Shown: one piece after another, positions 29,502 to 45,974 of the stretch
Layout of the letters: the number at the start of each line of letters is the position of its first letter
Numbering within the stretch: position 1 is the first letter of the stretch
Virus record (IMG/VR): IMGVR_UViG_3300035703_000044
Location: 29,765-93,764 of that record
Direction: 5' to 3' (one strand)
DNA: 64,000 nucleotides
From: a virus
Notes under the pieces: generated by a model
Database searches by the model: none
Told to the model about the DNA's origin: nothing
What the model saw: the letters and a program-made list of their open reading frames with translations, nothing else
Translations under genes and position numbers: made by a program

Positions 29502-29573
29502 GGGCTCATAGTTAAGCGGATATAACTACCGCCTTCTAAGCGGTCGTCCCTGGTTCGATTCCAGGTGAGCCTG
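29502..29573 (+). tRNA. tRNA-Arg(UCU)
   Basis: Cloverleaf; ACCGC-CTTCTAA-GCGGT. Confidence 0.92.
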
Positions 29574-29611
29574 TTGACAATTATACTCAATTACTCTATA
29601 ATTGTCTTATT

Positions 29612-29682
29612 GCGAGTGTGGTGTAGTGGTAACATGCGAGCCTTCCAAGCTCTTGTCACGGGTTCGAACCCCGTCACTCGCT
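29612..29682 (+). tRNA. tRNA-Gly(UCC)
   Basis: Cloverleaf; GAGC-CTTCCAA-GCTC; promoter TTGACA-17-TATAAT upstream. Confidence 0.92.
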
Positions 29683-29684
29683 CT

Positions 29685-29756
29685 CCTCTGGTAGTCTATT
29701 GGTAAGGACACCCCGACAAGGGAGTTGGAAATTGGGTTCGATTCCCAGACAGAGGT
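29685..29756 (+). ncRNA. tRNA-like element with non-canonical anticodon arm
   Basis: Acceptor CCTCTG/CAGAGG, D arm and T arm (TTCGATT loop) intact; anticodon arm reduced to CCC-GACAA-GGG. Confidence 0.65.
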
Positions 29757-29760
29757 ACAT

Positions 29761-29836
29761 TCCCCTATAGCTCAATTGGCAGAGCACGGAGCTGTTAACT
29801 CTGGGGTTGTTAGTTCGAGTCTAACTGGGGGAGCCA
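29761..29836 (+). tRNA. tRNA-Asn(GUU), CCA encoded
   Basis: Cloverleaf; CGGAG-CTGTTAA-CTCTG. Confidence 0.92.
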
Positions 29837-29837
29837 C

Positions 29838-29910
<73 letters not shown>

Positions 29911-29931
29911 CATAAATATTTCAAAAAGATA

Positions 29932-30369
29932 ATGGACGAGTTATACCAGTCATTACACAAAGCACAAACAAGTCTTTTTTGTTTAATGCAAAAGACTTGG
30001 GTATATCATTGGAATGTGGTTGGTTCGGATTTCTTTGAACTTCATGAAGCATTTGGTGAACAATATACTACAATGCAAGGTGAACTAGATAGATTGACTG
30101 AACATATGAGATATCTTCGCATGAAAGCTATCTCACCAATCAGTAGAGTCATTGAAACATGCGAGATTCCAGAAGCATCATCAAACCCAACTGATAAATC
30201 TATGGTTTCTCAGTTGCTTGCAGACAATAAAAAGATGATTGAACTTCTCACTTCTGTTGTAGAAGAATCTGAAAAAACAAAACAATATACTACATCAAAT
30301 ATTGCTCAGGATTTAATTGAAACACATGGCAAATTTGTTTGGATGTTACGATCGTATTTGAAAGAATGA
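29932..30369 (+). CDS. dps: Dps-family ferritin-like protein
   Basis: HWNVVG..FFELH..F.EQY...D.L.E ferroxidase pattern, WML at C-terminus. Confidence 0.88.
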   Translation: MDELYQSLHKAQTSLFCLMQKTWVYHWNVVGSDFFELHEAFGEQYTTMQGELDRLTEHMRYLRMKAISPISRVIETCEIPEASSNPTDKSMVSQLLADNKKMIELLTSVVEESEKTKQYTTSNIAQDLIETHGKFVWMLRSYLKE

Positions 30370-30539
30370 AAAAGAAAACCTTTAACAAACTTATTCAAAA
30401 ACCTTTGAGGTTTCATCATCAAGATATTCATGAGGAACTTGATATTATTAAGTTAGAACTATTAGAGATTAGGAGATTATTGCAAGATGTTAATCGTGAG
30501 ATGCCGAGATTGCAACAAGGAGATAACCAGCACGAATAA
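30366..30539 (+). CDS. Hypothetical protein
   Basis: ATGA-coupled to dps. Confidence 0.45.
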   Translation: MKKKTFNKLIQKPLRFHHQDIHEELDIIKLELLEIRRLLQDVNREMPRLQQGDNQHE

Positions 30540-30732
30540 AACTCAGGTGTGTGGTTGTCCAAATACTATGACTGTCAAAGGTGACAGTGTTTCAGCTGTT
30601 GACTTAAGTAGAGTAGTTATGGTAAACTCTACACAGAAAGAACAAAGAAATGTTCTGACTTCTCAAGATCTTGCTTTTCAGGAAGCAAGGAGACAACGCA
30701 AAGTTCGTAAACTGGACTTTGAGATTCGATAG
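30487..30732 (+). CDS. Small zinc-binding hypothetical protein
   Basis: CxxC...CxC. Confidence 0.6.
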   Translation: MLIVRCRDCNKEITSTNKTQVCGCPNTMTVKGDSVSAVDLSRVVMVNSTQKEQRNVLTSQDLAFQEARRQRKVRKLDFEIR

Positions 30733-30818
30733 GAAGGTCAAGCCGATAGGTGACGGCAGCTGTCTTGAAAACAGTCGAGGTGTTAAAGCCCTTAGGCGTT
30801 CGATTCGCCTACCTTCCG
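30732..30818 (+). tRNA. tRNA-Ser(UGA)
   Basis: Long variable arm; GCTGT-CTTGAAA-ACAGT. Confidence 0.9.
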
Positions 30819-30941
30819 TTACATAAGATACAGATTTAAGATTTTGTTTCGTTTTCTGTATCGCAGTGTTACAGAATCCTGACATATAGTTGACTTTGAA
30901 AAACCAGTGATTAGTATATATTAGTAATACGAATCACAGAC

Positions 30942-31091
30942 ATGGACCAACATACCTATAATAATTGGGTCCGTATAAAGGAAACATTTGAAGCATCTGG
31001 TAATACAGATAATATGTTTTACAAGAGATCAGTGGAGATAGTTAAGACTAGAAGAGATCCCTTGGCAAAGTTTCTTGGAGATGAAAAGTAA
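30942..31091 (+). CDS. Small hypothetical protein (49 aa, not in track)
   Basis: MDQHTYNNWVRIKETFEASGNTDNMFYKR...; promoter-like sequence upstream. Confidence 0.55.
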   Translation: MDQHTYNNWVRIKETFEASGNTDNMFYKRSVEIVKTRRDPLAKFLGDEK

Positions 31092-31109
31092 GATTATACA
31101 TAGAGTACG

Positions 31110-31223
31110 ATGAGACATCTTGTTGTGGAATTACTTAATAATAATCTGTTCTTATTCATCTTGTGTTACCTCTTGACAATGGTTCCAATCTTGGGTATAA
31201 TGATCATACACAAAAACAAATAA
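31110..31223 (+). CDS. Small membrane peptide (37 aa, not in track)
   Basis: Single hydrophobic helix; ends at tRNA-Pro. Confidence 0.4.
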   Translation: MRHLVVELLNNNLFLFILCYLLTMVPILGIMIIHKNK

Positions 31224-31297
31224 CGGGGTGTAGCTCAGTTTGGTAGAGCGCTGCTTTTGGGAAGCAGAAGTCGTAGGTTCGAATCCTGTCACCCCGA
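31224..31297 (+). tRNA. tRNA-Pro(UGG)
   Basis: Cloverleaf; CTGCT-TTTGGGA-AGCAG. Confidence 0.92.
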
Positions 31298-31313
31298 TCA
31301 TAAAACTCACTTT

Positions 31314-31541
31314 ATGAAAATGCAAGAAATTTCTGAACTTCAATCATTCACTGTAGAAGAGTTTCAAACTGACTTTGATAATCTTATGGATAGAGTAGAA
31401 CAAGGAGAATCGTTTATCATAACAAGTGAACATGGTAGTGCAGTTATGGTGCCATATAAAGAAGTGGTAGAAGTATTTGAAGAATGTGGTGTGAGTGAGG
31501 ATATAATACGCATTCACACCAACCACGAAGAAGGTTCATAA
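31314..31541 (+). CDS. Phd/YefM-like protein
   Basis: FTVEEFQ.DFD.LMDRVE.GE.F.IT....AVMVP resembles the Phd/YefM N-terminal fold. Confidence 0.5.
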   Translation: MKMQEISELQSFTVEEFQTDFDNLMDRVEQGESFIITSEHGSAVMVPYKEVVEVFEECGVSEDIIRIHTNHEEGS

Positions 31542-31548
31542 TTTTCTC

Positions 31549-31620
31549 GGGACTGTCGCCTATTGGCTAAGGCCCACTGCTTATAACGGTGTGAACTGGG
31601 TTCAATTCCCAGCAGTCCTA
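31549..31620 (+). tRNA. tRNA-Ile(UAU)
   Basis: Cloverleaf; CACTG-CTTATAA-CGGTG. Confidence 0.85.
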
Positions 31621-31623
31621 CTT

Positions 31624-31696
31624 GCTCCTTTAGCTCTCTGGTGAAAGCACTCTGCTCATAACAGAAGAAAGGTCAGTTCGATCCTGACAAGGAGCA
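31624..31696 (+). tRNA. tRNA with CAU anticodon (Met or Ile2)
   Basis: Cloverleaf; TCTG-CTCATAA-CAGA. Confidence 0.85.
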
Positions 31697-31773
31697 CTAG
31701 GACAGAAACTCTTCTGTCCATCTTGACTTCTCCAAGTCAAACCCTTATAATACTAAGGTCAACATTCAAAACA

Positions 31774-43773: not shown

Positions 43774-43877
43774 ATGAAAGAGCTGAGCGTATTAATGGTT
43801 GGGCAGCAATGATTGGTATTGTTGCCGCAATGGGTTCTTATGCCCTGACTGGGCAGATTATTCCGGGTATTTGGTGA
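43770..43877 (+). CDS. hli: Second high-light-inducible protein (35 aa, not in track)
   Basis: AGGAG RBS; MNERAERINGWAAMIGIVAAMGSYALTGQIIPGIW. Confidence 0.88.
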   Translation: MNERAERINGWAAMIGIVAAMGSYALTGQIIPGIW

Positions 43878-43888
43878 TGGAGGTTACT

Positions 43889-44416
43889 ATGCGTAAAGAA
43901 CAGTATGAAGTTCCCCAAGTACAATTTGTATTTCGTGAGAATGGAGAGTTTGTGATTCGTACTACTTCAGAACTTTTCGATAAAAAACGTGTGGTCATTT
44001 TTAGCCTGCCTGGTGCTTTCACTCCTACTTGCAGTGCCTATCAGTTACCTGGATTTGAAGAGAAATACGAAGACTTTATTGGTAGTGGCATCGACGCTAT
44101 TTACTGCATCTCTGTTAATGATGGGTTTGTGATGAATGCCTGGGCACAAGACCAAAACATCAAGAATGTCCAACTCATTCCTGATGGTAATGCATACTTT
44201 ACACGTTCTATGGGACAACTTGTGATGAAGTCTAATCTTGGTTTTGGTGAACGTTCCTGGAGATATGCTGCAGTTGTAGATAAGGGTATTATCGAAAAAC
44301 TTTTTGAAGAACCTGGTAAATCGGATAATGCATCTGATGATCCTTATGGAGAAACAACTCCAGAAAAAGTTTTGGAGTATGTGAAATCTACAGCACGCGA
44401 AACAGTTGCTGCTTGA
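43889..44416 (+). CDS. Prx5-type peroxiredoxin
   Basis: PGAFTPTCS, SVND.FVM.AW, RSWRY; GGAGG RBS. Confidence 0.9.
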   Translation: MRKEQYEVPQVQFVFRENGEFVIRTTSELFDKKRVVIFSLPGAFTPTCSAYQLPGFEEKYEDFIGSGIDAIYCISVNDGFVMNAWAQDQNIKNVQLIPDGNAYFTRSMGQLVMKSNLGFGERSWRYAAVVDKGIIEKLFEEPGKSDNASDDPYGETTPEKVLEYVKSTARETVAA

Positions 44417-44476
44417 TTGGTGGAGGGATAAAACCCTCCTTTTTTCATAAATATATCGCAGGGTTTGGATGCAATA

Positions 44477-45175
44477 ATGTTCATAGATCTTCATAACTTT
44501 TTCAAGTTTTACGACGAGAAAAATCCAAAGCACGTTGCTGCAGTTGAACAACTTGAAAAAGATTTGCAATTGAAGTCTCAGGATCTGTTGGAAGATGAAT
44601 CAAATTGGGTAAGAATCTATAGAACTAAACAAGACAAACCTCAATCATCAATTTTACCCGTTCCTTTCTATCCACAAACAGACAACTATAGGGATGCAAA
44701 TAGAACTTGTAACTCTTCTGCTTGTGCAATGTGCCTTGAGTATTTCAAACCTGGTACACTAAAAGGACCTAAGGGCGATGACGCCTATGTACAAAAAGTT
44801 TTCTCAATCGGTGACACAACTGATCACTTGGTTCAGACCAAGGTTCTTGCGTCATACGGCATTAAATCCAGTTTTTCCTACAGTCTTACTTTTGCTGATC
44901 TTGATAGAGAGCTTGCCTCTGGTAGACCTGTTGTTATTGGTATTCTTCATCGCGGTCCTCTATCTAACCCCACAGGAGGGCACATGGTAGTAGTGATCGG
45001 CAAAACTCCATCTGGCGATTATGTTGTCAATGATCCATATGGTTCATTGAATGATGGGTACACTGGTTCAGTTAATAATGGAAAGGGTGCTGTTTATAAG
45101 AGAAGTGATCTATCTCGCAGATGGGTGCCAAAAGGAAATGATGGTTGGGGTAGAATCTTTGATGCAAAAAAGTAG
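44477..45175 (+). CDS. C39-like cysteine peptidase (endolysin N-terminal part)
   Basis: Q..N...C (YPQTDN...TCNSS), GHMVVVIG, NDPYG; CATAAATA late promoter upstream. Confidence 0.78.
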   Translation: MFIDLHNFFKFYDEKNPKHVAAVEQLEKDLQLKSQDLLEDESNWVRIYRTKQDKPQSSILPVPFYPQTDNYRDANRTCNSSACAMCLEYFKPGTLKGPKGDDAYVQKVFSIGDTTDHLVQTKVLASYGIKSSFSYSLTFADLDRELASGRPVVIGILHRGPLSNPTGGHMVVVIGKTPSGDYVVNDPYGSLNDGYTGSVNNGKGAVYKRSDLSRRWVPKGNDGWGRIFDAKK

Positions 45176-45207
45176 AAACGCCAACTAATAATATTTCTTT
45201 AGTTGGC
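45166..45207 (+). other. Putative -1 programmed frameshift signal
   Basis: A_AAA_AAG just before TAG, 7-nt spacer, 9-bp stem GCCAACTAA/TTAGTTGGC. Confidence 0.75.
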
Positions 45208-45213
45208 ATTGAT

Positions 45214-45651
45214 TTGATAAAAGAGTTTGAAGGGTGTCATCTAAATGCTTATCCTGACCCATTGACTGGCAAAGAACCAATAACTATTGGTTGGGGAAGT
45301 ACTAAGGATTTCAATGGACAACCATTTAGACTTGGTAAAAGAATTACTCAAGAGTATGCTGATAAACTTTTGATTTTTGATATCGAACAAAGATTTATTC
45401 CTTCTCTACAAAAAATACCTTATTGGGGTGAGATGAATGACAACCAAAGAGGGGCTTTACTTTCTTTTGCTTATAATCTTGGTGCAGGTTTTTATGGTGG
45501 TAGCAACTTCAATACTATTACGAGGGTCTTGAAGAACAAGGAATGGGACAAAGTTCCTGATGCTCTTTATCTTTATCGTAATCCAGGAACTAAAGTAGAA
45601 ACAGGTCTTGCTCGTAGACGGAAGGCAGAAGGAAAACTTTGGTCTTCTTAA
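45214..45651 (+). CDS. GH24 lysozyme domain, probably translated as a frameshift fusion
   Basis: FEG...AY.D....TIGWG, AL.SFAYN.G, GL.RRR.AE; only a TTG start, no RBS. Confidence 0.85.
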   Translation: MIKEFEGCHLNAYPDPLTGKEPITIGWGSTKDFNGQPFRLGKRITQEYADKLLIFDIEQRFIPSLQKIPYWGEMNDNQRGALLSFAYNLGAGFYGGSNFNTITRVLKNKEWDKVPDALYLYRNPGTKVETGLARRRKAEGKLWSS

Positions 45652-45974
45652 TCTTCTACTCTTGTTCTTAATGCAATTACTGTAGTTAGAATAGTCAATA
45701 AAGTTTCAAATCCTCTTCTTTCAGATTCTTTGCAATCTAAAGGGGGAGGATTTTTTAGTCCACCTAAAAGGTTTGCATGATTTGTTGTACCTGGAATCAT
45801 AAAGTTGCAAGCAATAAAGTTTAATCCAACAAACCCAATTATAGATGCACAGATAATAAAGATCAGTTTATTCAATAAAGAACCGTGTTTTTTTCCTACC
45901 GCGTTTTGCTGGTCTTCGGATGAATCTGATGACTTCTGTTGGTTGTCTTTTTGGTTGTGGTCTTCTTCCTTCAT
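45648..45974 (-). CDS. Hypothetical membrane protein
   Basis: Two hydrophobic segments; convergent with lysozyme. Confidence 0.5.
   Translation of the reverse strand: MKEEDHNQKDNQQKSSDSSEDQQNAVGKKHGSLLNKLIFIICASIIGFVGLNFIACNFMIPGTTNHANLLGGLKNPPPLDCKESERRGFETLLTILTTVIALRTRVED

Follow-up and report, generated by a model that had tools for sequence, protein, structure and literature searches.

The window analysed here is a 64-kb stretch of viral DNA, the right-hand part of the 93.8-kb IMG/VR virus record IMGVR_UViG_3300035703_000044 (positions 29,765 to 93,764; record about 48% complete), with psbA, a cluster of tRNA genes and genes of T4-like cyanophage type. Within it lies a gene for a two-enzyme cell-wall lysin which, judged from sequence comparison, very probably contains a programmed -1 ribosomal frameshift of the dnaX/IS3 type. 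The 0 frame encodes a cysteine peptidase and the -1 frame a lysozyme, which is most likely made only by a -1 slip at the end of the peptidase, here and in dozens of relatives. The nearest named relatives of the locus are Kyanoviridae (S-PM2, S-SRM01). One window is not enough for such a claim, because the heptamer AAAAAAG is common and the window's hairpin taken alone is modest, so the case rests on the relatives. The elements of the junction are:

44477..45175, plus strand: 0-frame open reading frame (ORF) of 232 aa, the short product, with an N-terminal domain of ~55 aa and a C39-like (papain-fold) cysteine peptidase (Pfam, PHROG 3617)
45160..45162, plus strand: TGA of the -1 frame, bounding the shift window on its upstream side
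45166..45172, plus strand: slippery heptamer A_AAA_AAG, in X_XXY_YYZ phase with the peptidase frame
45173..45175, plus strand: 0-frame TAG right after the heptamer, terminating the short product
45180..45207, plus strand: candidate 3' stimulatory hairpin (perfect complementarity, pairing within stem groups, tie to start-less junctions)
45172..45651, plus strand: -1 frame with a 14-residue Pro/Thr/Asn/Ser-rich linker and a GH24 lysozyme, 159 aa and stop (Pfam PF00959, GH24 structures in PDB, PHROG 3617)
45214..45216, plus strand: TTG, the sole canonical-type start in the lysozyme frame, rejected as a start

The signals and their phase are directly visible in the DNA. The peptidase ORF runs from ATG 44477 to TAG 45173-45175 and ends GCA AAA AAG TAG; past TGA 45160-45162 the -1 frame reads CKKVETPTNNISLVGIDLIKEFEG... 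and is free of stops to 45651, so that the two open frames overlap by 10 nt containing the heptamer. After a 7-nt spacer, inside the roughly 5-9 nt expected for a 3' stimulatory structure, the hairpin follows, with a perfect 9-bp stem (arms 45180-45188 and 45199-45207), a 10-nt loop and a folding energy of -12.4 kcal/mol. The predicted products are 232 aa and 232+159 = 391 aa. The initial annotation had given the codons at the gene end, the heptamer, the TGA, the stem with its spacing, both product lengths and the TTG as the only lysozyme start; the coordinates are all correct, the stem and the product lengths were confirmed, and the TTG is indeed the only ATG, GTG or TTG before the lysozyme core. 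Its interpretation of these signals as a programmed -1 frameshift gains support from the comparison of relatives described below.

In the mechanism that we propose, the majority of ribosomes would translate the N-domain and the C39-like peptidase and stop at TAG 45173. A fraction would be held by the hairpin with P- and A-site tRNA-Lys on AAA AAG, would slip one base back onto A AAA AA, and would then read GUA GAA... through the short linker into the GH24 lysozyme, yielding the 391-aa peptidase-lysozyme. The adjacent TAG may add to the pause. That slipping occurs, at some frequency, and that it is ribosomal rather than transcriptional, is what we infer from the signals and their conservation; the shift would then set the ratio of two lysis enzymes, with both forms presumably active. 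A G-rich TGGGG lies ~15 nt upstream of the heptamer, and because it is imposed by Trp-Gly codons, its role as a Shine-Dalgarno-like stimulator cannot be judged from sequence.

Both domains score above their Pfam cut-offs. Peptidase_C39_2 (PF13529) matches residues 60-188 of the short product (E 2.7e-13; 51.1 bits, Pfam cut-off 24), and Phage_lysozyme (PF00959) matches residues 17-153 of the -1 product (E 3.5e-23; 82.7 bits, cut-off 22.3). PHROG 3617, a family profile of 405 positions, spans both ORFs end to end (peptidase 1-235, lysozyme 247-405). The peptidase Cys and His (RTCNSS.C, GGHM) and the Glu of the lysozyme FEG motif are invariant in our alignment A4. A sequence search of PDB returned GH24 lysozymes for the -1 product (9kbq_A, E 5e-15) and no relative for the peptidase. 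The protein is a putative phage endolysin, a label that comes from PHROG 'endolysin' families and GenBank annotations as family labels alone.

The -1 product can be aligned with the solved GH24 lysozymes from its residue 6-11 onwards, already before the TTG (residue 15), which stands five codons ahead of the catalytic Glu and within the first helix. For the position of this helix and the nature of the linker, an AlphaFold model was made of the in-frame relative L061; it is of modest quality (predicted local distance difference test, pLDDT, 67.5; predicted template modelling score, pTM, 0.40; 15-row alignment). The model predicts a disordered linker and a helix at 246-256 ending at the catalytic Glu. 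By fold comparison its lysozyme half resembles the GH24 endolysins 8app, 9kbq and that of P22, and its peptidase half gives weak C39 matches (7n87, E 3.6e-3; 3erv, E 4.4e-3) along with weak matches to other papain-like folds. The alignments and the model thus lend indirect support to the earlier proposal that the -1 frame supplies the first lysozyme helix.

Relatives were collected in three IMG/VR scans (the best 80 of 598 confirmed relatives in the first, 80 of 276 in the second, and 25 of 25 in the third). The window together with L001-L166 forms a junction pool of 167 sequences, from which 49 duplicate junctions were dropped. A lysozyme lies downstream in 82 distinct junctions, 70 of them in the -1 frame, 11 in frame and one in +1; it lies upstream in two loci, and in 25 there is none inside the locus. 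The 70 distinct -1 junctions divide into 58 with in-phase A_AAA_AAG, one with T_TTT_TTT, one with A_AAA_AAA plus an ATG, and ten lacking a heptamer, all ten of which have an ATG or GTG at the peptidase stop. Among the 58, no ATG, GTG or TTG precedes LIKEFEG in 29, late or internal TTG or GTG codons alone occur in 20, as in the window, and an overlapping ATG or GTG is present in nine. Directly observed, then, is a link to the missing start: an absent start is always paired with a slippery site, and an absent slippery site always with a start. Two more distinct -1 junctions, missed by the motif search and kept outside the statistics, are L105 (identical to L106), with heptamer and no start, and L150 with six copies, with ATG and no heptamer. 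The third scan added four distinct A_AAA_AAG junctions with hairpins (L180=L181, L182=L185, L183, L184) and two T8 junctions (L167, L168).

Heptamer, -1 offset and 3' hairpin recur in homologues of 54-94% protein identity, S-PM2 included; the conservation check on these three features, proposed along with the initial annotation, thus finds all of them kept. S-PM2 reads GCA AAA AAG TAA, and its lysozyme, in the -1 frame, has no ATG, GTG or TTG ahead of the core; in S-SRM01 the heptamer is accompanied by an ATG that overlaps the stop; S-CAM7 reads GT T_TTT_TTT CCA CAG TAG, with a -1-frame lysozyme and no start; ACG-2014f has one in-frame ORF; S-CREM1 has a fusion in reversed domain order; and DSL-LC02 has two genes, each with an N-domain copy (62% identity to the window N-domain, E 3e-20). 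The GenBank records of these six phages carry no frameshift annotation. That of S-PM2 holds only a 72-aa 'putative lysin' starting at an internal ATG, and that of S-CAM7 only a 90-aa 'lysin'.

The slippery site is constrained at the level of nucleotides. The heptamer is in phase (NNA AAA AAG) in all 58 distinct heptamer junctions. The preceding codon is GCA in 28, GTA in 26, ACA in three and GAA in one (Ala, Val, Thr, Glu), ending in A every time (58/58), whereas across these ORFs 27% of Val codons are GTA and 42% of Ala codons are GCA. In the Lys pair AAA comes first and AAG second, again in 58/58, with backgrounds of 67% and 33%. Flanking codons upstream vary freely (GAT 27 and GAC 17; ATC 20, ATT 18 and ATA 5; four Gly codons). 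A 0-frame stop adjoins the heptamer in 45/58 junctions and comes one codon later in the other 13/58.

For each junction the sequence spanning heptamer to lysozyme core was folded and compared with 200 dinucleotide shuffles. Start-less junctions (n=50) have a mean folding free energy (dG) of -16.5 kcal/mol and a mean z-score (z) of -4.13; junctions with heptamer and overlapping start (n=10) have z -1.0, in-frame fusions lacking the heptamer (n=5) z -0.2, and separately started genes lacking it (n=10) z -0.57. By this comparison of groups the hairpin is a feature of the frameshift layout rather than of the protein. Its position is filled by at least five stem sequences unrelated to one another; the 3' arm falls on conserved Gly-Val/Ile-Asp/Glu or Leu-Val-Gly codons just before LIKEFEG, and the 5' arm within an otherwise free linker. 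Among the 21 distinct rows of the largest stem group, 97.6% of cells are paired, against 28-48% when the pairing is slid, and covariation is observed, with five pairs changed on both sides (0/500 shuffles as high). The window's stem group (13 rows) is 90.4% paired, against 11-50% when slid, and that of S-PM2 (15 rows) 91.5%.

Two other roles for the hairpin were considered. It is not an intrinsic terminator by our terminator scan, which found no terminator-like site there. A pseudoknot in the window was likewise rejected: the best downstream partner of the loop is 6 bp, all A-U or G-U, and is reached by 156/200 shuffles, so the window keeps a simple hairpin because its loop finds no better partner than shuffled loops do. 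In another group, stem group B (L011, L012, L014, L016-L018, L020, L024, L030, L033, L041, L056, L158 and others), the loop ATCCCTCAA is able to pair with TTGAGGGAT, which lies in the Phe-Glu-Gly codons 11 nt past the stem. This pairing is reached by 0-3 of 200 loop shuffles and is absent from the window's group; an H-type pseudoknot is possible in group B, and the largest stem group lends support to one.

Several observations weigh against the frameshift, or narrow what supports it. (i) The window contains 51 copies of AAAAAAG where 38 are expected; in so A+T-rich a genome the heptamer by itself is common. (ii) The window hairpin alone is modest in its 71-nt context, with z -1.9 (8/200 shuffles fold as well), and has z -3.8 in the 53 nt following the heptamer; the window alone is a weak case, and the combination is far beyond chance only via its conservation in relatives. 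(iii) Covariation does not exceed that of shuffles in the window stem group (13 rows) or the S-PM2 group (15 rows). (iv) Nine junctions retain the heptamer despite an ATG or GTG start, and its conservation could therefore partly reflect ancestry or the Lys-Lys residues. (v) Contigs with seven A exist, through DNA-level variation of the run or misassembly. (vi) The site was checked against assembled contigs of other sequencing runs rather than raw reads; in these, no covering run has an indel at the site, and a contig of run X1 crosses 45079-45181 with six A and zero differences. The RNA run X15 covers 44679-44887 only, outside the junction. (vii) The tRNA evidence that would favour slipping, tRNA-Lys(UUU) and no tRNA-Lys(CUU) among the 35 tRNAs read in one picocyanobacterial genome and the 33 short ones read in another, comes from incomplete drafts of possible hosts, reached via the window psbA. 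The ten phage tRNAs of the window include none for Lys.

The rival that survives best holds that peptidase and lysozyme are two separate genes, the lysozyme being started at TTG 45214, at a non-standard codon, or by re-initiation after the TAG, with the heptamer a mere Lys-Lys tail. The window does have a TTG, and an ATG or GTG overlaps the peptidase stop in 19 distinct junctions (nine with A_AAA_AAG, one with A_AAA_AAA (L129) and ten heptamer-less, L136 counted once), which makes coupled separate genes a state that this locus does adopt. For the window and its start-less relatives we nevertheless consider this improbable. Half of the heptamer junctions (29/58) offer no start of any of the three kinds, hairpins are strong precisely where starts are absent, and protein sequence explains neither the wobble A ahead of the Lys pair nor the invariable order AAA-AAG. 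The TTG itself was rejected as a start: it is a freely varying Leu codon (TTA, CTC or CTT in other junctions), initiation there would cut the first helix, and a scan found no promoter-like site before it. Independent initiation at 45214, which the initial annotation had named as an outcome that would speak against its proposal, is thus opposed by the evidence.

Transcriptional slippage, in which RNA polymerase would add an A within the A6 run so that some mRNAs encode the in-frame fusion, would suit a homopolymer site, the T8 run of S-CAM7 and the seven-A DNA variants. It is unlikely, slightly more so than separate genes, because the reading phase, the closing G and a hairpin at 7 nt would all be needless for it, yet all are conserved; moreover, bacterial RNA polymerase slippage uses runs of about nine or more, and six A is shorter than that. 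Seven A is found in only two distinct junctions (three contigs: L061=L065, and L078), both still with a hairpin, which read DVKKVEN or DIKKVES, identical to the predicted shift product; we take these forms to be recent insertions or assembly errors. A broken lysozyme or a homopolymer sequencing error splitting one ORF, which a single added A would repair just as in those three contigs, is very improbable given that 58 distinct sequences from isolates and numerous samples, with peptidase identity as low as 54%, share the six-A junction, that the lysozyme frame is open and conserved with its catalytic motif kept, and that the contig from the other run agrees.

The signals of a programmed frameshift, the reading that we prefer, appear at this locus with a second heptamer and among several alternative gene forms. 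In the S-CAM7 clade (L005, L167, L168), an independent second case, the site is GT T_TTT_TTT, followed by a 5-nt spacer CCACA and the stem GTAGAACC/GGTTCTAC (L005:1093-1160 in S-CAM7, with a -1-frame lysozyme and no start). The in-frame cyanophage peptidase-GH24 fusions (ACG-2014f, marine contigs and PHROG 3617; S-CREM1 in reversed order) have the same domains in a single ORF, with no heptamer (except in ACG-2014f) and no hairpin (the z of -0.2 above). Where the shift would yield ...FDAKK-VE..., in-frame relatives from marine samples have GWGRIFDAKVE..., so that DAKVE stands against DAKK-VE; together with the seven-A contigs they provide observed in-frame counterparts of the predicted junction. 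ACG-2014f itself (L006:1092-1232; also L087-L089) is an in-frame fusion with in-phase GCA AAA AAG, an 8-bp G+C-rich hairpin 5 nt downstream, and a -1 frame that stops after one codon (KKV*), so a shift there would yield a short, peptidase-only form. This dnaX-like layout is limited to one close lineage, the heptamer being absent in the in-frame L091, L092 and L094-L096.

Other forms of the locus were seen alongside these. A ~50-aa N-domain occurs twice in DSL-LC02 (L004 410-2111), before the peptidase and before the lysozyme, and contigs from a lagoon metagenome show the same doubled layout (run X1 joints from window 45159/45163 to 44484/44495). An N-domain copy in all split forms was dropped as a generalization, as the N-terminal extension of the L060 lysozyme has no BLASTP likeness to the window N-domain. 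Peptidase relatives such as L028, L031 and L034 end GWGRVFQP* with no lysozyme within 1.5 kb, and L028 has a tRNA-like sequence after the peptidase; L048 and L050 end DVK*, resembling a remnant of the frameshift tail. There are 17 distinct peptidase-only sequences on the tree described next.

A FastTree phylogeny of 115 distinct peptidase domains (a single domain, midpoint-rooted, supports not shown) places the A_AAA_AAG state across one large clade, with split, peptidase-only, reversed and seven-A forms scattered within, and the T8 clade nested in the marine in-frame clade. This arrangement points to two origins of the predicted frameshift and repeated exits from it. As a tentative extension, the locus may be a labile recoding switch that doses two wall-cutting activities. 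It would comprise five lysin forms: (i) the in-frame fusion, (ii) the -1 frameshift gene, arisen at least twice with the heptamers A_AAA_AAG and U_UUU_UUU, (iii) a possible dnaX-like reversed form (ACG-2014f), (iv) overlapping separate genes and (v) genes with duplicated N-domains. Hairpins or pseudoknots would set the efficiency and hence a lineage-specific ratio of peptidase-only to peptidase-muramidase chains, which might cooperate, perhaps via the shared N-domain.

The ingredients have precedents. The OrfA/OrfAB genes of IS3-family elements (IS911, IS150) use A_AAA_AAG, a close 0-frame stop and a 3' structure to make a fusion by frameshift, and the predicted lysin layout is alike in all of these; the IS3 product is a transposase, whereas the lysin joins two catalytic domains of a wall hydrolase. 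The tail assembly chaperone G/GT of phage lambda is made by a conserved phage -1 frameshift giving a short and a C-terminally extended protein in fixed ratio; unlike the lysin, it uses another heptamer, as a rule lacks a strong hairpin, and serves structure instead of lysis. According to the accessible part of a frameshifting review, the heptamer most prone to shifting in E. coli is A_AAA_AAG, since one tRNA-Lys reads both of its codons (PMC5009743). The same part describes dnaX tau/gamma of E. coli, where a single tRNA-Lys(UUU) reads the heptamer and which resembles the lysin in its A_AAA_AAG, its stem-loop a few nt downstream and, by prediction, its two products sharing an N-terminus (PMC5009743). 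The dnaX shift leads to the short product and the lysin shift would lead to the long one, the gene class differs, and dnaX has an upstream Shine-Dalgarno-like stimulator, for which the lysin's candidate TGGGG is fixed by codons; it is the in-frame form of ACG-2014f that would have the true dnaX-like layout.

Endolysins made as two polypeptides from one gene are known, through in-frame internal starts, from the accessible parts of two papers (PMC9430671, PMC12203907). They are like the lysin in drawing a long and a short isoform from one locus, and unlike it in that, as these parts describe them, internal initiation leaves a shared C-terminal wall-binding part, whereas recoding of the lysin would leave a shared N-terminal part. 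The word 'frameshift' has no occurrence in the accessible text of either paper, and endolysin, lysozyme and cyanophage have no match in that of the review PMC5009743. Our literature search, which covered sources other than subscription journals, found no report of a frameshift in an endolysin gene of a cyanophage or any other phage. A classical mechanism would here be at work in a new class of gene.

Turning to the surroundings of the gene, a terminator-like hairpin with a T-run lies at window 44422-44439, between a peroxiredoxin-like gene (43799-44416), which it directly follows, and the start of the peptidase 38 nt further on, so the lysin may have its own transcript. On the other side, a convergent ORF of 108 aa with one hydrophobic segment (window 45648-45974, minus strand) overlaps the lysozyme stop by 4 nt and is kept beside the lysin in S-PM2 (p158); its product may be a membrane partner of the lysin, and a holin-like role is a guess. 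The window's tRNA cluster (29502-31697) comprises Arg-UCU, Gly, Asn, Val-UAC, Ser, Pro, Ile-UAU and Met tRNAs as well as a further tRNA whose anticodon was called, oddly, as two bases. In the window and most relatives the first -1 codon past the shift would be GUA, the codon that Val-UAC reads. A psbA 91% identical to that of the window was found on L256, a contig binned as a Rubrivivax metagenome-assembled genome; L256 probably comes from a phage or a cyanobacterium and was misbinned.

If the frameshift is real, the main lysozyme is absent or cut short in the present annotations of S-PM2, S-CAM7 and many metagenomic cyanophages, and a lysis enzyme would join the short list of phage genes with -1 frameshifting, so far tail chaperones and some capsid genes. 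The locus would also offer an uncommonly rich natural series on the gain and loss of frameshift signals, with fused, shifted and split forms, two heptamers and several stem types.

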